DNA of 64,000 nucleotides from a virus (Duplodnaviria; Heunggongvirae; Uroviricota; Caudoviricetes). The notes beneath the pieces were generated by a model. The model was not told where the DNA came from, did not search any database, and was given only the letters and a program-made list of their open reading frames with translations. Shown one piece after another: positions 44,848 through 61,902 of this stretch. Position 1 is the stretch's first letter; each line of letters starts with the position of its first letter. Position numbers and translations under genes: made by a program. The DNA lies in IMG/VR virus record IMGVR_UViG_3300020050_007388, positions 15,730-79,729 of that record. One strand, given 5' to 3'.

Positions 44848-45121
44848 TTAATAATCTTTCTATAGTTAACAATTGAGCTTGTTTTCTAGTAATATCAACT
44901 TTATAAATAGCTGTAAATGGAGATCTATATTCATAAATAGCCCCATATTTAATACAAGATCTATAAAATGCAAATCTAATGGTCAAATCATTTAAATATT
45001 TAACTGGAGTCAAATGTAAACTATAGGCTCTATCAGGATGACCTTTTACAGTAAACTCAATTTCCCATTCTAAGTCATGAATGAAAATTCTTTTCTTTAA
45101 AACAGTAATATTTGGTTGCAT
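44834..45121 (-). CDS. hypothetical protein (95 aa)
   Basis: ORF only. Confidence 0.4.
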   Translation of the reverse strand: MQPNITVLKKRIFIHDLEWEIEFTVKGHPDRAYSLHLTPVKYLNDLTIRFAFYRSCIKYGAIYEYRSPFTAIYKVDITRKQAQLLTIERLLNENF

Positions 45122-47046
45122 CTTTCAATCTCAGCTATAATTGTGTTTACTTTAGACAAATAAAACTTATAGTCAATATTATAATTTTCTAACTCTTGAT
45201 GTTGGTTATAAATCATAATACCTGTATCACTTAACATATGAGACCTTGTATAAATATTGTCTGTAATTTTAGTCTTTTTATTCAACCTTTCAACCCATCT
45301 ACATTTATATAAATATCCACCTTTAGTAGAAGCATAATATCTATTCAATCTTTGTTGTTTAACTCCTTTCCATTCAACAGTATAACTTCTATCTACCTTT
45401 TGGCTAGCACAGAAATCATAAATATGAAATTTACTCCAATCAACATCTTCAGGCTTAATCCCTTTAACAAAATATTCTTCCAGTAATTTAGGAATAATTA
45501 AGAAATCAGAGCTGTTGCCCAACTCAGGTTGAGTGACAAACATTCCTTTTTTCTTCAATTGCCCATTTTCTAAAATTGCAATATAATCATTAACAGAGCT
45601 ATAAATGATACTTCTGTAATTTTCACTTTCAAATTGAACATTAAACTTTTCCTCAACTTCTTTAACTAATTGGAAATAAGTTTGCATTTTATCATTAGGT
45701 ACAATAACCTCCAAACCATCAGTATTTAGACTAAGTACTTTGAAGCCATTTAAAATACATTTTTCCATTAGAAGTAAAAGAATTAATTGTCCTCCACATC
45801 TAACTTTCATAATCCCTTCAGAGTTAAACAACCATGAATACTCTAAATCCAATAAACCTGAAACACCATTTAAAATTAGTTTATAAAACAAATCTTGCTG
45901 GAAGAAGTTAGTCCATTCAGGAGAACCTTTGGAGTGTTGTTTCATTCCAGGTTTGGTTTCTGTAATCCGTTTAGTTTTAAAAGACTTATAGATATTTAAA
46001 ACTTCTGGAAATCTGAATGCATTCCAATTCTCAATGTTAGTTGGGTACATTGCAGCCACATCCGAAGTCAAGATTGTATGTGTATCTGTAGTATGATATA
46101 TTTCATTATTATTTACTGAATGAATACCACCTACACCACATGTAACTTGTATTGGATGATCTTTAGTACCAGTAAGAAATGTTTTATTAAATGTGTCCAC
46201 TGAATTACACCATTCAGAATATAGCTGTTTTAATTCAGGTAATTGAAACTCTATATTTAGATCTTTTAAAAGTCTTCCAAAATGTATTACAGGACGATCA
46301 AATCTTAGATCTCTTGTACTCTTTTCATCCTTCTTGGTAATCTTACAGTATTCTTTTAATAATGTCTCTGAAGCAATTTTAGGGCCATCCATAGACCATG
46401 CATTAATACCATAGTCTTTAACAACTTGTCCTCTTAATTGTATAGTTCCCAAGTTACCTAATGGAACTTTACTTTTACCTTCAAAAGCTTCTGTCAATAA
46501 CCTAAGAATACCTAAATCATGTTGAAGATTATAGTTCTTTAATTCAGCTCTTTGATCTTTATCTAGAATCATACTAGGATCAAACGGTAATTCCTGTATA
46601 GTATGATAACCTAACTGAATTCCCAACCCCTTCAAACTAATCTTTTTAGATTGTCTTAAACCTTTACTCCAATAAAGATATAAATCTACATTAGTAAACT
46701 TCCAATTAAAATATTTGTAAGGTTTAAGAGATTCAAAATTACCTTCTTCATCATTAATAATTTTATCTGAAAAGTTTTTCAAGTTTCTACATACTTCATA
46801 CCATCCTACACCTGGCCACCATCTATTTTTCTGACCATAAGCAAGAACCATATTGTCATAATGTAAACCATTAAAACTAATCCAAAAACCACTGTATTGG
46901 TTTAAGAATTTATATAGTTCTTGCCTTTGATCTATATCCTCAGCTATCTCAAAACTAGTTTTAATACCAGTTTTATAATCTTCAACACCTAATAAGAAAT
47001 ACTGAGGAAAAACTTCACAATCTATAAGTAACTGTTCCATAATCAT
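45097..47046 (-). CDS. DNA polymerase, family B-like, with 3'-5' exonuclease domain (compact, 649 aa)
   Basis: Exo I LIDCEVF (DxE), Exo II FNGLHYDNMVL, Exo III YNLQHDLGIL, motif A SDVAAMYPTNI (DxxSLYPS-like), motif B KLILNGVSG (Kx3NSxYG-like), motif C SLNTDGLEV (DTDS-like). Confidence 0.6.
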   Translation of the reverse strand: MIMEQLLIDCEVFPQYFLLGVEDYKTGIKTSFEIAEDIDQRQELYKFLNQYSGFWISFNGLHYDNMVLAYGQKNRWWPGVGWYEVCRNLKNFSDKIINDEEGNFESLKPYKYFNWKFTNVDLYLYWSKGLRQSKKISLKGLGIQLGYHTIQELPFDPSMILDKDQRAELKNYNLQHDLGILRLLTEAFEGKSKVPLGNLGTIQLRGQVVKDYGINAWSMDGPKIASETLLKEYCKITKKDEKSTRDLRFDRPVIHFGRLLKDLNIEFQLPELKQLYSEWCNSVDTFNKTFLTGTKDHPIQVTCGVGGIHSVNNNEIYHTTDTHTILTSDVAAMYPTNIENWNAFRFPEVLNIYKSFKTKRITETKPGMKQHSKGSPEWTNFFQQDLFYKLILNGVSGLLDLEYSWLFNSEGIMKVRCGGQLILLLLMEKCILNGFKVLSLNTDGLEVIVPNDKMQTYFQLVKEVEEKFNVQFESENYRSIIYSSVNDYIAILENGQLKKKGMFVTQPELGNSSDFLIIPKLLEEYFVKGIKPEDVDWSKFHIYDFCASQKVDRSYTVEWKGVKQQRLNRYYASTKGGYLYKCRWVERLNKKTKITDNIYTRSHMLSDTGIMIYNQHQELENYNIDYKFYLSKVNTIIAEIERCNQILLF

Positions 47047-47735
47047 TTATATTTCCAAGATTTGGGATTATGTTTTGACGGAAGTTTTTGTTTACCCCTT
47101 AAAACAAGACTTAAATGTTTATAGGAAAGATTATTTATCTTACACATCTCTGTGAGAGATTTGTATTCTTTAACTACTGTACCATTTTCCATTTCTAATA
47201 CAGGTTTTGCCCTCATTCCTTCAATAGATTTCCAATTTTTAGGTATCTTACCTTTTAATGCAGCACTTACTTTTTGACTTATAAGCCTCCTTGTTTCTAG
47301 TGGTATAATTCCACCTCCTGTGTGTCCATCATGAGAACAGTTGAATCCTAACTTAACACAATTAAATTGCTTAATATAAAATTCTTCTCTTGATCTTGAT
47401 ACTGATTTATCACATAATTCAACAATTTCAAATACTAAATTCTCAAAACCATATTTGTTTACATAATTTTGTAATTTTGGGGAGTGATGTGTTCCAGCTC
47501 GTAAAGACATAATATGGTGATACAGTCTAATATAAAATCCAACCCTAAATTTTTTATATCTACCTGAATTAGTTTGTATTGCACTTCCAATGTAAACTCT
47601 TTTCTTAACATCATTACTAAAATAAAGTTTGTATATTCCAGTAGCAGATATTAATTTAGGATCTTTTGGCAATAACTGTAAAACCTTATCTTTTACAGAA
47701 AAACACTCTATATCAATTAGCTTCTGTTCCATCAT
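47043..47735 (-). CDS. GIY-YIG homing endonuclease; first 12 aa mimic the DNA polymerase N-terminus
   Basis: TGIYKLYFSNDVKKRVYIGSA ... R ... H matches the GIY-YIG core. N-terminus MMEQKLIDIECF compared with polymerase MIMEQLLIDCEVF. Confidence 0.65.
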   Translation of the reverse strand: MMEQKLIDIECFSVKDKVLQLLPKDPKLISATGIYKLYFSNDVKKRVYIGSAIQTNSGRYKKFRVGFYIRLYHHIMSLRAGTHHSPKLQNYVNKYGFENLVFEIVELCDKSVSRSREEFYIKQFNCVKLGFNCSHDGHTGGGIIPLETRRLISQKVSAALKGKIPKNWKSIEGMRAKPVLEMENGTVVKEYKSLTEMCKINNLSYKHLSLVLRGKQKLPSKHNPKSWKYK

Positions 47736-47925: not shown

Positions 47926-48260
47926 ACTATGTCTAATATTTTATTTGAAAATAAGATACTTGATATTTCAGTTCCCTGATAAATAATCGGATCAAATTTT
48001 ATCTCTAAAAATTTAGTTCCTGTTCCTCTACCAGTAATTGATTTAATCACTACATCAATGTCTTCTAAATTAGTATAATCATACCAATTATTAGGATCAC
48101 TAAACTCTTCCTTAGTTGTAAATACCTGATATTTATAATGGGTGCCAAAATTACTTTTTGGTCCATATTGTGCAAACCATAACTTTACAGTTTTACCTTC
48201 ATACAATCTTTTCAACTCATTATTAATTAATGTCTTCCAACTTGATATTTTTATTCTCAT
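47922..48260 (-). CDS. hypothetical protein (112 aa)
   Basis: ORF. ATG overlaps the stop of the upstream helicase exon 2 (ATGA at 48257-48260). Confidence 0.5.
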   Translation of the reverse strand: MRIKISSWKTLINNELKRLYEGKTVKLWFAQYGPKSNFGTHYKYQVFTTKEEFSDPNNWYDYTNLEDIDVVIKSITGRGTGTKFLEIKFDPIIYQGTEISSILFSNKILDIV

Positions 48261-48406
48261 AGTTTATCTAACAACTGTTTAAGATTACTGCAATATATAA
48301 ATGGAGCATTTAACTCTTCCGTCATACTTTCAAACCACTTTTCTTCTTGAGTTCCTGCAGTTAAATGAATTATAACATTACCTACTTGTTTGTCCTGTCT
48401 TAGCCT
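48257..48406 (-). CDS. SF2 helicase, proposed exon 2 (motif VI arginines plus C-terminal tail)
   Basis: In-frame RLRQDKQVGNVIIHLTAG...; an in-frame TGA lies ~17 codons upstream at ~48458. Joining to exon 1 after ...QMVG recreates motif VI QMVGRLRQ. Confidence 0.45.
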   Translation of the reverse strand, partial: RLRQDKQVGNVIIHLTAGTQEEKWFESMTEELNAPFIYCSNLKQLLDKL

Positions 48407-49289
48407 CTTTTTGTCAATACAGTTATTTCTCTCAGATGTCAACCTGGACTGTATTCCTACTTTTCAATAGGGATCGGACTATATCTTTATTCAGAGTACT
48501 CTGAATATCTACTGTTTCAGAAAGATTGACTTCTTTCCTACCCTTATTACTAAGGTATTACTTAGATATTTTATATTCCATTGAAGGAATAATAAAATTA
48601 CGAATAACATTTGCTAATTTTCTACCTTCTTTTAATCTACAAACCAAAGCAAAATTATTTTTCATTTTTCTCTGTCCAAACTGAACATCATATTTAGATT
48701 TAAACCAATCAATTATTATTTGATTATCTTCTTTTGATATACAAGTAGACAATGTTGAAATTGAAGACCGAATATTGTTATTAGGTTTACAATATTCCAT
48801 GCTACAACTACCATCATCCATCCACCATATTGCTATATGAATAGGTTCTAGCTTGTTTAAAATCTTTTGAGAAATAACTTTTTTGTTATCTGGATATAGA
48901 ACTCTTCTAAGAAGTTTAGTGTAATCTGATATTTTAACTCTAAAACCAACTTGTTTAAAGTTTCCAGAATCTCTATATAATACACCAGAATGAGTAAGTA
49001 ATGGTCTAATTAAATCGGCTTTATATTTCACATACTCTTCCTGATTAATAGAATGCCACACTTCAATTCTACCATTTTTATCAATACTTCCGTCTCCTAT
49101 ACACATTGATAAAAGCAAATGTCTATGTTTTTTTGTAATTTTCATATCTCTTACGCTATTGCGAAGTTTAAATTGTAATTTTAGTCTCTACACACGCCCG
49201 GAATATAAATTCCTGCTTGGCTCGGTATTCCCATATCATTTTTTGACTTAGGGTTCACCGAATTAAATAGAATTATGGGCAAGCTATTC
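48407..49289 (-). mobile_element. putative group I intron (~883 nt) carrying a LAGLIDADG homing endonuclease ORF, inserted in SF2 helicase motif VI
   Basis: Helicase ORF ends abruptly at ...TQMVGE* right at motif VI; continuation is in-frame 0.88 kb downstream. A double-motif LAGLIDADG ORF lies between. Proposed 5' exon ends in U (ggu) and the intron ends in G (aaaag), as group I introns require. The ORF-free flanks carry palindromes (e.g. cagagtactctg at ~48491). Confidence 0.5.
48558..49145 (-). CDS. LAGLIDADG homing endonuclease (two-motif, monomeric type)
   Basis: LLLSMCIGDGSI (motif 1) and IAIWWMDDGSC (motif 2) about 95 aa apart, typical of double-motif LAGLIDADG enzymes. Confidence 0.75.
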   Translation of the reverse strand: MKITKKHRHLLLSMCIGDGSIDKNGRIEVWHSINQEEYVKYKADLIRPLLTHSGVLYRDSGNFKQVGFRVKISDYTKLLRRVLYPDNKKVISQKILNKLEPIHIAIWWMDDGSCSMEYCKPNNNIRSSISTLSTCISKEDNQIIIDWFKSKYDVQFGQRKMKNNFALVCRLKEGRKLANVIRNFIIPSMEYKISK

Positions 49290-50372
49290 ACCCACCATTT
49301 GAGTAAAATCTTTGTTCTTACTATAATATGCCAACAAAACAACATTATCTAATCCAGGTATATTCTCACCTTGTTTAAGAATCCTATTAGATCCTGTTAA
49401 CTTTGTTTTACCAGCTTTAAAATCTGCCAAATCCTGAACATAATTAGGATTATCTGACACAATAGATGTTGGGCATATATCTAACAAAGTAGCACTATCT
49501 TGACCAAATACTAAAGTTTTACCTGGCAACTTACTTATTAGATCTTTACATAGTTTTATTTTACTTGGTAAACTGTAAAGAAACCTAGCTCTTCTAGTTG
49601 CTACTTGAATAGTTCTAAACTTCTTTTCTTCAGCAGTTTTATACTTTGCAAACATAGCATCTCTAACAGACTTATCTAAATAACTATAGTTTAACTTTTC
49701 AGTAGTCCAGAATGTTTGACCTTTAGCTCCAGCTTGAATATTTCTATTAACATCATCTAATTGATGTTTAAGAACAAAAAACTTAATATCCCTAGTTGTC
49801 TTATTATCCATTGACTCTTGTAAAGAGTATGTATAAACAACTGGGCAGAACTTTTTAAGTAAATCAAACTTAGTAATCTCTTGACCTTGAATAAGATATT
49901 GAGTTTTCTTATCTATTGTAGCCGATAAACCTAACTTCGCATAAAGTGTAAATGTTCCATGATAATGAGAGTTTGAGTTATTAATAAACTCAATTCTTTT
50001 ATCACTAAGAATATCATGAATCTCATCCATGACAATAATTGTATTATCTACTACCGCATTGGGAAAGTAATCCCATAAGTTATATTTGTAAGCCCCTTGA
50101 TAAGTTGCAAATTTGAACTTGTAACCTTTCAGTGGATCCACACCATAGAATTTCTTATATTGTTGAGCATCTTGTAGAACAGTATTCTCCCTAACTACAG
50201 TCTCAGCTAAAAATAAAACATTGCTGCCTTTAGGCATACTTAAAATACACTTAAAAGCAACAAATGTTTTACCAGTGCCTGTAGCTTGTTCTATGGTTCC
50301 TATTTTACCATTATTTAACCAAGCCTGATGTGCTTCAGTTTGGACCTTTTCTTTAACTTTGTTGAGCATCAT
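49284..50372 (-). CDS. SF2 (DEAH/SNF2-like) DNA helicase, exon 1
   Basis: Motif I ATGTGKTFVAF, motif II VMDEIHDI, motif III LGLSATIDKK, motif V QGENIPGLDNVVLLAY. Ends TQMVGE* where motif VI (QxxGRxxR) should continue. Confidence 0.7.
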   Translation of the reverse strand: MMLNKVKEKVQTEAHQAWLNNGKIGTIEQATGTGKTFVAFKCILSMPKGSNVLFLAETVVRENTVLQDAQQYKKFYGVDPLKGYKFKFATYQGAYKYNLWDYFPNAVVDNTIIVMDEIHDILSDKRIEFINNSNSHYHGTFTLYAKLGLSATIDKKTQYLIQGQEITKFDLLKKFCPVVYTYSLQESMDNKTTRDIKFFVLKHQLDDVNRNIQAGAKGQTFWTTEKLNYSYLDKSVRDAMFAKYKTAEEKKFRTIQVATRRARFLYSLPSKIKLCKDLISKLPGKTLVFGQDSATLLDICPTSIVSDNPNYVQDLADFKAGKTKLTGSNRILKQGENIPGLDNVVLLAYYSKNKDFTQMVGE

Positions 50373-50967
50373 AATCTTTTTTAAATTTCCATAAATATCC
50401 TCCTAAACTTGCTCGTTTACCCAAAGCCACTTGACTTAATGACCCAGAACTTAATTTACAAACCAACCCTGCTTCTTTTATACAGCTAAATTCTGCAAGA
50501 ACTTTATGAGTCATCATATCTATTTTATATATTGGTTTACGATTAGAAGTGTGCTTTCTAGCATATTGAGCATCACTCATTCTTTTCTTGGATTCAATAC
50601 TTCTTTTCTTACCTGTATTTGCTTTTATTAATTTAGCTATTGATTCTTTACTTAATTTTCTTCCTAAACGGCTTCCTGCAATCTTTAATGCGTTATATTC
50701 AGGTTTATAATTATTTATGAAGTATTGTTCAATTCTAATTAAATGTTCCTTAGGACAGGTAAATAATATTTCAAACATGAAATTATCAGAACCATATTTA
50801 TTCCAACTTCTCTGTAAATATTTGGAATGATGCTTATTTTGTCTTAAATCATATCTATGAACTCCCCACCGAAGCCTAATATTTATTGCTGAACCAATAT
50901 AACACTTTCTTGTAGTTATATTAGTGATCTTATAAATACCTGAAATGGAATTTGATAACTTAATCAT
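50353..50967 (-). CDS. GIY-YIG homing endonuclease
   Basis: SGIYKITNITTRKCYIGSA ... R ... H ... YLQRSWNKYGSDNFMFEIL. Its 3' end overlaps the helicase start by 20 nt. Confidence 0.75.
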   Translation of the reverse strand: MIKLSNSISGIYKITNITTRKCYIGSAINIRLRWGVHRYDLRQNKHHSKYLQRSWNKYGSDNFMFEILFTCPKEHLIRIEQYFINNYKPEYNALKIAGSRLGRKLSKESIAKLIKANTGKKRSIESKKRMSDAQYARKHTSNRKPIYKIDMMTHKVLAEFSCIKEAGLVCKLSSGSLSQVALGKRASLGGYLWKFKKDYDAQQS

Positions 50968-54761: not shown

Positions 54762-54873
54762 AAAAACTAATTAGTTACAATTTATAGTACCCCTGACAGG
54801 GGATGATCCTGCACGGACTTCACAGTCCAAAAGGGTTTAAACCTTTCTCGGCTTCCAGTTACGACACAGGGGC

Positions 54874-56697: not shown

Positions 56698-56772
56698 GTG
56701 GTGAGAGAAGATTTTGAGCCTCCGACCTGTTGTGTTTCAAACAACCGCTCTTACCATCTGAGCTACCTCACC
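56698..56772 (-). tRNA. tRNA-Phe (anticodon GAA)
   Basis: Reverse complement GGTGAGG-TA-GCTC-AGATGGTAA-GAGC-G-GTTGT-TTGAAAC-ACAAC-AGGTC-GGAGG-CTCAAAA-TCTTC-TCTCACC-A folds as a cloverleaf. Anticodon loop TT-GAA-AC. T-loop is atypical (C at position 54). No encoded CCA. Confidence 0.65.
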
Positions 56773-58071: not shown

Positions 58072-58093
58072 TATTTAAAAATTTAATGTTTAG

Positions 58094-58165
58094 TTGCGCA
58101 GCCGGGATATGCACCCAGGTCTCAAGGTTATGAGCCTCGCGAGTTAACTACTTCTCTACCGCGCA
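58094..58165 (-). tRNA. tRNA-Met/Ile2 (anticodon CAT)
   Basis: Reverse complement TGCGCGG-TA-GAG...CTC-G-CGAGG-CTCATAA-CCTTG-AGAC-CTGGG-TGCATAT-CCCGG-CTGCGCA-A. Anticodon loop CT-CAT-AA. 3-bp D-stem. No CCA. Confidence 0.55.
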
Positions 58166-58290
58166 ATTTAATAATTAATTAGGTAGGACTGATTACCTAC
58201 ATGTAGACCTTACGTATTATCTACCAGCCATAGAGTCGAACTATGTTGATTGCCCCTACTGTATGTCTAAATTCCATCACTAATTAATTG

Positions 58291-58365
58291 TGACCCGTAC
58301 TGGACTCAAACCAGTGACCTACAAATTAGAAATTTGTTGCTACTATTCAACTGAGCTAACGGGCC
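58291..58365 (-). tRNA. tRNA-Arg (anticodon TCT)
   Basis: Reverse complement GGCCCGT-TA-GCTC-AGTTGAATAG-TAGC-A-ACAAA-TTTCTAA-TTTGT-AGGTC-ACTGG-TTTGAGT-CCAGT-ACGGGTC-A. Anticodon loop TT-TCT-AA. No CCA. Confidence 0.65.
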
Positions 58366-61278: not shown

Positions 61279-61902
61279 TTATTTATATTTCCACTTGTAA
61301 CCATAAGCGGAAGTTCTTTTACCTTTACAGCATTTGCTTATTTCAGAAACATTTTTATTTGTTTTACCTATAGCTAAACAAGCTTCTGTTATGCTATTAT
61401 ACACATTGATTGTTTTTCCTAATAGATCTAATTGCTCAACAGATTTTATTTTATAGTCGAAAGAATTCTTTTTTCTATATTTAAATAAACTTCTTTCTTT
61501 TAATATTGTCCTCACTGTGATTATAGAAATATTTAATTTGTCTGCTATTTTTCGAGTGGATTTTAGATCCACATATAAATCTGGAATAATATCTTCATAT
61601 TTTCTTTTTCTTGTACAACCTTTACATCCTTCTCCACCTTTTGTAAGATTATATCCATTTCTATAAGAATTGTATTTCCTTATATAATAAATCTCTTTTT
61701 CATCTAATAATTCAGGTTTTGTTTTTTCAACTATTTCAAATGTAAAATTTTCCAAACCATATTTCAGTATTGCTGAATAAATGGCACATTTATACTTTTT
61801 TGGTTTAATGTGTTGTTTCCATCTAATATTAGGTTCTTGGACCGTTTGCCCAATATAACATTTATTATTTAAATGATTTGTAATTTTATAGATTATTGCC
61901 AT
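61279..61902 (-). CDS. GIY-YIG homing endonuclease
   Basis: MAIIYKITNHLNNKCYIGQT ... RWKQH ... ILKYGLENFTFEIVE. C-terminal Cys cluster CCKGKRTSAYGYKW. Confidence 0.75.
   Translation of the reverse strand: MAIIYKITNHLNNKCYIGQTVQEPNIRWKQHIKPKKYKCAIYSAILKYGLENFTFEIVEKTKPELLDEKEIYYIRKYNSYRNGYNLTKGGEGCKGCTRKRKYEDIIPDLYVDLKSTRKIADKLNISIITVRTILKERSLFKYRKKNSFDYKIKSVEQLDLLGKTINVYNSITEACLAIGKTNKNVSEISKCCKGKRTSAYGYKWKYK

Follow-up and report, generated by a model that had tools for sequence, protein, structure and literature searches.

Group I introns with homing endonuclease genes are classical residents of phage DNA-metabolism genes, and conserved catalytic codons are a known pattern of insertion (PMC3984707). 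In phages, these introns mostly carry enzymes of the GIY-YIG, HNH, PD-(D/E)xK or EDxHD types (PMC3984707). In crAss-like phages, group I introns have been reported in core genes, where they were recognised via endonuclease protein domains, and LAGLIDADG 'endonuclease maturase' domains are named in a figure legend (Yutin et al. 2021, PMC7886860). Here we analyzed a stretch of 64,000 nucleotides (the window) from the uncultured phage record IMGVR_UViG_3300020050_007388. According to our in silico analysis, the SF2 helicase gene of this crAss-like phage is, with high confidence, interrupted in motif VI by a group I intron, mobile and of subgroup IA type, that encodes a putative LAGLIDADG homing endonuclease.

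We compared the window intron with the T4 td, nrdB and nrdD (sunY) introns and with the SPO1 and SP82 DNA polymerase introns (IA2), using background on these introns and a review (PMC3984707). All lie in phage DNA-metabolism genes, and self-splicing is predicted here as well. They share a P7.1/P7.2 extension between P7 and the P3 3′ strand, insertion at conserved catalytic motif codons, a looped-out, free-standing endonuclease open reading frame (ORF) and an early stop codon past the 5′ splice site. In contrast to these introns, the window intron lacks P2 and has its ORF between P7 and P7.1 instead of in P6 or P9.1, while its enzyme, of the LAGLIDADG type, sets it apart from phage introns generally. 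The crAss-like introns reported previously (PMC7886860) come from the same host lineage as the window phage; here we resolve the structure of the RNA, the precise splice sites and an allelic series. The nearest solved structure to the enzyme by sequence is I-SceI (E 9e-6, residues 76-193), likewise a two-motif single chain encoded in a group I intron, and the window enzyme matches Pfam LAGLIDADG_2 over the full domain. However, the similarity is low and limited to the C-terminal half, the proteins have 195 versus 235 amino acids (aa), and I-SceI resides in mitochondrial rDNA rather than in a phage gene. We regard three features as mildly unusual: an SF2/SNF2 helicase cut in motif VI, the LAGLIDADG enzyme, and the position of its ORF between P7 and P7.1.

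A helicase reading frame interrupted in motif VI

A preliminary description of this DNA proposed that a helicase frame stops just before motif VI and resumes in frame about 0.88 kb downstream, behind a TGA. Our results agree on each of these points. On the (-) strand, the unspliced exon-1 ORF (50372..49284, 362 aa) terminates with KDFTQMVGE directly before the stop codon and matches the Pfam families ResIII (E 8.6e-12) and DEAD (E 3.8e-8). The exon-2 frame reads RLRQDKQVGNVIIHL... up to a stop at 48257, and the in-frame TGA upstream of it occupies intron positions 824-826. Between the last base of exon 1 (U49290) and the first base of exon 2 (A48406) lie exactly 883 nt. The predicted ligated junction in the mRNA, ...AUGGUGGGU/AGGCUAAGA... 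(also given as ...CAAAUGGUGGGU/AGGCUAAGACAG...), joins the exons into a 410-aa SF2 helicase, the insertion falling between the Gly and Arg codons of motif VI. The exon-terminal U and intron-terminal G that had been proposed as splice sites are those set by P1 and P10 (see below).

The 410-aa spliced protein matches single, uninterrupted helicase genes of Cellulophaga phage phi14:2 (Crassvirales; 'SNF2-family helicase') and of Flavobacterium phages, including FpV4. It aligns with the intact helicases of phi14:2 and FpV4 free of gaps over the junction (KDFTQMVG-RLRQD vs KDLIQRLGRLRIN and KDLIQRIGRLIRF), and therefore the restored frame is not due to chance. Motif VI, restored as QMVGRLRQ in line with the earlier proposal, is complete solely in the spliced protein, where it is colinear with phi14:2 g056 and FpV4 gp61; motifs I, II, III and VI thus stand in order on one polypeptide, the arrangement that defines SF2 membership. 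Splicing raises the Pfam Helicase_C score from 13.6 to 17.9 bits, which is still below the Pfam cut-off of 23.5. Many full-length metagenomic homologues have no interruption (P0002, P0004 and others, 79-84% identity), and a second set of homologues ends at the identical point, where an E or K comes after Q-x-x-G (P0023, P0027, P0031, P0032, P0036, P0039 and P0050). Exon 2 by itself lacks a plausible start; the sole in-frame one is a TTG within P9.1.

Ribozyme core and splice-site pairing

The intervening sequence had been called group-I-like, and a covariance-model search was suggested as a check. Model RF00028 of Rfam matches both flanks of the endonuclease ORF and, together with the covariation of P1 and P10, identifies a real group I intron. 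The flanks, estimated beforehand at about 140 and 150 nt, measure 144 and 151 nt, are free of ORFs and have a G+C content of 36.8% and 34.4%, versus 26.9% in the ORF. In the 5′ flank, 49264..49180 matches model positions 57-150 with 22.3 bits (E 0.004; P, Q and R elements); in the 3′ flank, 48603..48455 matches with 33.6 bits (E 1.6e-6; P8, S element AAGAUAUAGUCC and P9). Both half-matches were found in E-value mode on the intron region, and neither reaches the gathering score of 50, because a 624-nt insert splits the model. At the identical site of a related phage (L008, the contig that encodes P0023), an ORF-less intron of 306 nt scores 75.1 bits (E 1.7e-19, model 1-253), and the window intron is 95% identical to it over the 5′ 108 nt and 91% over the 3′ 82 nt.

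Rfam in gathering mode reported only tRNAs and no intron in the whole window, and no intron in L008, L010 or L012. A whole-window scan in E-value mode missed both intron half-matches. The 75-bit score of L008 was obtained in E-value mode from a 351-nt stretch, and the null result in gathering mode is a filter effect. The speed filters of Rfam hide such A+T-rich introns, and scans may under-count them.

The group I core, P3 to P9 with the P/Q and R/S elements, was located in the two flanks, and in a hand-registered helix table all core helices of the window copy pair. Hairpins P7.1 and P7.2 between P7 and the P3 3′ strand are the hallmark of subgroup IA. Both are present here between the P7 5′ and P3 3′ strands, so that the predicted fold belongs to the IA type, which implies no choice among IA1, IA2 and IA3. 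P1 is separated from P3 by just 1-3 nt, P2 being absent. Folding of the ORF-deleted intron recovered P1, P4/P5, P6a, P7.1, P7.2, P8, P9 and P9.1 (z = -3.56); P3 and P7 cross, and a nested fold is therefore unable to show them together. Mismatch-tolerant searches of the window with the S and P elements for a second intron copy returned the known copy and otherwise chance-level hits.

Structure counts were made on seven of the nine introns that we located at this site in different phages (the window, L008, L010, L012, L015, L016 and L018). Over the 66 positions of the hand-registered table, pairs form in 456 of 462 cells, and 32 positions are altered on both sides. An unfitted MAFFT alignment gave 90.9% paired cells, against 31-45% with the partners slid by 1-3 columns. 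In the same alignment both sides had changed in 27 pairs, compared with 9.3 +/- 2.3 in shuffles, and none of 500 shuffles reached 27. P7.1 and P7.2 were read from the hand table, as MAFFT misplaces their register in the window relative to the other forms; here 35/35 and 40/42 cells pair, and 5 and 4 positions have changed on both sides, respectively. Compensatory changes also occur in P3, P6a, P8, P9 and P9.1.

At the splice sites, the pairing partners follow the exons. P1 was found in the versions GUGGGU/GCCCAU, AUAGGU/GCCUAU and GUGGU/GCCAC, with both-side changes in L012 and L018 and with the U.G pair at the 5′ splice site. P10, next to the terminal G (AAAAAG, 48407), occurs in four covarying versions (UAGCUU/AGGCUA, CAGCUU/AGGCUG, GCAUUU/AGAUGC and AAUUCU/AGAAUU), and 4 of its 6 positions have changed on both sides. 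The Gly codon is always GGU in the intron-containing alleles examined, as the U.G pair requires, while intron-less alleles have GGA or GGG.

These pairings suggest how splicing would proceed, along the pathway known for group I introns. The helicase gene would be transcribed as one precursor, in which the guide GCCCAU would form P1 with the exon-1 end GUGGGU, leaving a U.G wobble at the 5′ splice site. A free guanosine held in P7 would attack after U49290, and the guide UAGCUU would form P10 with the exon-2 start AGGCUA. The terminal G48407 would then move into the G site and the exons would be ligated, the mRNA encoding the 410-aa helicase with an intact motif VI.

The endonuclease and the allelic series at the helicase site

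The double-motif LAGLIDADG ORF noticed in the preliminary description is borne out by matches to Pfam LAGLIDADG_2 (E 7.2e-23, profile 8-167 of 168) and to PHROG 11023, 'homing endonuclease with LAGLIDADG motif' (E 4.6e-28). Its two motifs, LLLSMCIGDGS and IAIWWMDDGS, lie in one chain and keep the acidic residues (GDG, DDG), as is characteristic of the family. Compared with an allele of 88% protein identity in L038 and L039, the ORF shows a dN of 0.065 and a dS of 0.676. The resulting dN/dS (nonsynonymous to synonymous divergence) of 0.097 indicates that the protein is under purifying selection. The ORF does not occupy a terminal loop, but the interval between the P7 5′ strand and P7.1. By eye, a possible ORF-closing stem is formed by AUUAC (5′ of the ORF) and GUAAU (just past its stop); this region is identical in the three LAGLIDADG-form introns and gives no covariation.

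Just 5′ of the start codon lies a leader hairpin whose 3′ strand overlaps a purine-rich, Shine-Dalgarno-like stretch. By analogy with I-TevI, this hairpin may time or control translation of the ORF. It is kept, with an exchange of CGC/GCG for CAC/GUG, in introns of other genes (L040, L041 and L049). A search of IMG/VR with the hairpin pattern returned seven loci, all unrelated chance matches and none with a LAGLIDADG ORF.

Relatives of the LAGLIDADG protein (49-57% identity) were found in introns of like architecture in other genes. Two introns with ORFs of 56-57% identity (L040:2850-3850 and L049:2330-3330) interrupt terminase large-subunit genes in the Walker A glycine run, between ...FFGG and GGGGKSW, and have the layout of the window intron (P7, leader hairpin, ORF, P7.1, P7.2, P3 3′ strand). 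A further LAGLIDADG-intron relative (L041) is located 5′ of a gene for a family A DNA polymerase.

One ribozyme backbone occupies the helicase site in three forms: it carries the LAGLIDADG ORF between P7 and P7.1, it carries a GIY-YIG-like ORF within P8 (L010, L012 and L018), or it has kept no more than the 3′ remnant of the latter. The site is empty in the intron-less allele of L006 (CAAATGATTGGA/AGGCTCCGG). In the second form, the GIY-YIG-like frame extends across the 3′ strand of P8, the S element (AAAGAUAUAGUCC = K-D-I-V-R/Q-S), P7 and P9 into P9.1, so that translation and ribozyme folding must compete. In L008, P8 retains about 55 nt with homology to the 3′ end of this ORF in L010, so that the L008 intron looks like a deletion derivative and the loss step of an endonuclease cycle.

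Population-level sequence traces point to horizontal transfer of the intron. In L038 and L039, about 750 nt of the intron interior, including the ORF, are 100% identical, whereas the exons are about 70% identical at the nucleotide level and the helicases 66%; the identity falls sharply near the intron edges. Conversely, L039 and L010 have helicases of 98% identity but carry a LAGLIDADG and a GIY-YIG-like module, respectively, and the outer parts of their introns are 97-99% identical. This pattern indicates that the central module was exchanged by recombination within the conserved core. From residue 161 to the C-terminus, the intron-containing L038 differs from the intron-less P0002 at only 4 residues. 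Three of these stand directly 3′ of the insertion, where L038 has the residues of the window (RLRQDKQVG vs RLRGDKNIG), the pattern expected of co-conversion. The 195-aa enzyme would most likely cut intron-less helicase alleles of co-infecting relatives at the conserved site, and repair of the break would then insert a copy of the intron along with a short piece of adjoining exon. An exon-1 search of IMG/VR for related loci retrieved intron-less alleles and a partial copy of the window's contig only.

According to our comparison, endonuclease genes may also move as cassettes independently of the ribozyme, a reading that we consider possible but a little short of probable. It draws on the three forms of one backbone, on their exchange between phages with nearly identical helicases via recombination in the conserved core, and on the recurrence of the LAGLIDADG cassette with its leader hairpin in the two terminase Walker A introns and in the one near the family A polymerase.

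Some observations concern introns beyond the helicase site. The 18-nt P4/P5 element AATTCGGTGAACCCTAAG is present in 19 IMG/VR contigs, of which L031 and L035 contain the L012/L013 helicase intron itself. About 14 others (L019-L034 range, most numbered like isolate-genome entries) hold group I introns of a distinct set, whose P1/guide is very similar (AUGGGU/GAAUG..UUGCCCAU) and some of which have ORFs. Searched at the nucleotide level in 'near' mode, the region had no match among deposited phage genomes. In 'distant' mode, with 50,697 such genomes covered, the only match was one of 53 nt to the core, in Rheinheimera phages. In the Rheinheimera Barba phages (MK719701 and 111 more records, about 48541-48594), this match to the P3-P5 core lies in a 'hypothetical protein' gene and is possibly an unannotated group I intron. 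In the crAss-like genome cr118_1 (MT774379 / NC_055872, 46981-49142), DNA polymerase matches come in two pieces around a 'hypothetical protein', and this gene is probably interrupted likewise.

Alternative readings, genomic context and significance

Several points weigh against a splicing, homing intron. The ligated junction is predicted from sequence, and the activity and target of the endonuclease are putative. The window intron stays below the RF00028 gathering score, and the 624-nt insert adjoining P7 could slow folding. P4, P6 and P7 do not vary between the homologues, and there covariation is silent for or against. In addition, the covariation set consists of seven distinct but mutually related sequences, and the hand register of P7.1 and P8 is partly positional rather than based on demonstrable homology. 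From some of these facts it could be argued that an endonuclease element was inserted and the ribozyme is dead, the helicase being made as two polypeptides or the gene being a pseudogene; the size of the insert and its closeness to the catalytic P7 would fit. We consider this very unlikely. The core helices of the window are intact and all their cells pair, and P1 and P10 follow the exon sequence across homologues, which matters only if splicing occurs. Moreover, intron cores are 90-95% identical in 5 of 6 compared copies (76-83% in L018), against 67-82% for the exons. Without splicing, exon 2 would be left with its TTG in P9.1 as start and the essential motif VI would be severed, yet the arrangement persists in phages with helicases diverged to 66%.

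If the intron splices, its LAGLIDADG protein could still act solely as a maturase or have lost its activity, the intron being inherited vertically. LAGLIDADG maturases do exist, one being cited for a bacterial intron (PMC3984707), and the nuclease activity of the window enzyme is predicted. The low dN/dS speaks for a maintained protein, although a maturase would fit it equally. We nevertheless give this explanation only a small chance: both motifs keep their acidic residues, the ORF segment is fully identical in phages with diverged exons, the identity falling off sharply towards the intron edges, and a co-conversion-like patch adjoins the insertion site. An assembly chimera, or an element of another type, is scarcely credible. 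The window is indeed a metagenomic contig, but independent assemblies from several samples and sources (JGI, ENA, Logan) show the same architecture. An intein was rejected, as the host frame stops directly after the junction, one codon past it (GAA UAG), and no Hint domain was found in Pfam. A group II intron was rejected as well: neither a reverse transcriptase gene nor a group II match in Rfam was found, and group I elements are present. We thus retain the mobile group I intron. Intron insertion into a catalytic motif of a replication gene had been described beforehand as a homing pattern, with which the identity of the intron interior, the module exchange and the co-conversion-like patch are all consistent.

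By its gene content, we identify the window as a crAss-like phage replication module. Among deposited sequences, the best relatives of the DNA polymerase (47046..45097, PHROG 1252) come from uncultured crAss-like phages, and the helicase most resembles the one of Crassvirales phage phi14:2. The (+) strand carries giant ORFs of 1520, 3205 and 1333 aa. Two free-standing GIY-YIG endonuclease genes lie on either side of the helicase gene and overlap the starts of the helicase and DNA polymerase genes (Table 1); at both positions, L008 has no endonuclease-sized ORF. No suppressor tRNA was found among the tRNA genes of the window. A match to the type-P1 twister ribozyme (RF03160; 61917..61976, (-) strand) reaches 52.2 bits (E about 4e-11), below the gathering score of 67.2. 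Its conserved core nucleotides align, and it lies 15 nt upstream of a 207-aa ORF (61902..61279).

Table 1. Coordinates of the intron, its host gene and neighbouring features in the window, and sizes of the introns found at the same helicase site
Feature	Position	Strand	Remarks
Helicase exon 1	49290..50372	(-)	361 codons, ends ...TQMVG; motifs I (GTGKT), II (DEIH), III (SAT)
Helicase exon 2	48257..48406	(-)	49 codons + stop; begins RLRQDKQVG, completes motif VI (QMVG-RLRQ)
Group I intron	48407..49289	(-)	883 nt; starts GAAUAG, ends ...ACAAAAAG (AAAAAG), terminal G 48407
P1 5′ strand GUGGGU	49295..49290	(-)	final 6 nt of exon 1; U.G at splice site
Internal guide sequence	49275..49286	(-)	UAGCUU 49286..49281 (P10), GCCCAU 49280..49275 (P1)
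Ribozyme 5′ half	49183..49271	(-)	classical P, Q, R elements included; RF00028, helix tables
P3 5′ strand	49271..49266	(-)	
P4	49261..49257 with 49226..49222	(-)	
P5	49253..49230	(-)	
P6/P6a	49221..49196	(-)	
P7 5′ strand GAGACU	49188..49183	(-)	
Leader hairpin CUUCGC-AAUA-GCGUAAG	49150..49166	(-)	just 5′ of endonuclease start codon
LAGLIDADG homing endonuclease gene (putative)	48558..49145	(-)	195 aa; between P7 5′ strand and P7.1
Ribozyme 3′ half	48407..48555	(-)	RF00028, helix tables, fold
P7.1	48555..48542	(-)	
P7.2	48538..48519	(-)	
P3 3′ strand	48513..48508	(-)	
P8	48506..48489	(-)	
J8/7 + P7 3′ strand	48488..48476	(-)	S element AAAGAUAUAGUCC
P9	48471..48456	(-)	GAAA loop
P9.1	48455..48416	(-)	
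P10 exon strand AGGCUA	from 48406	(-)	initial 6 nt of exon 2
Free-standing GIY-YIG endonuclease gene	50353..50967	(-)	overlaps helicase start by 20 nt
Free-standing GIY-YIG endonuclease gene	47043..47735	(-)	overlaps DNA polymerase gene start by 4 nt
Phage tRNA Leu(UAA)	54787..54873	(-)	
Phage tRNA Phe(GAA)	56698..56772	(-)	
Phage tRNA Met(CAU)	58093..58165	(-)	
Phage tRNA Arg(UCU)	58290..58365	(-)	
Window intron, allelic form			883 nt; LAGLIDADG ORF
L038 intron			878 nt; LAGLIDADG ORF
L039 intron			876 nt; LAGLIDADG ORF
L010 intron	L010:4084-5183		1100 nt; GIY-YIG-like ORF, about 263 aa
L012 intron	L012:4081-5175		1095 nt; GIY-YIG-like ORF, about 263 aa
L018 intron	L018:4015-5096		1082 nt; GIY-YIG-like ORF, about 263 aa
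L008 intron	L008:4081-4386		306 nt; no ORF
L015 intron			288 nt; no ORF
L016 intron			273 nt; no ORF

The intron described here is a known kind of mobile element, and the general mechanism of group I introns is unchanged by the finding. For annotation, gene callers give a truncated helicase of 362 aa, plus an orphan ORF of 65 aa in related contigs, where the true protein would have 410 aa; the same error is found in at least 8 other metagenomic phage contigs. The compact LAGLIDADG enzyme, with its defined natural target site (putative), could interest meganuclease engineers. The most useful by-product is the allelic series at a single site. Its ORF-less, GIY-YIG-like and LAGLIDADG forms lend themselves to studies of the intron endonuclease life cycle and of possible competition between phages. 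The locus would clearly illustrate how, in nature, a homing intron spreads through uncultured crAss-like phages. If endonuclease genes do move as cassettes, wild crAss-like phages would present a live allelic series of the cycle of endonuclease gain, degeneration and loss, and the intron could be a weapon between co-infecting relatives.

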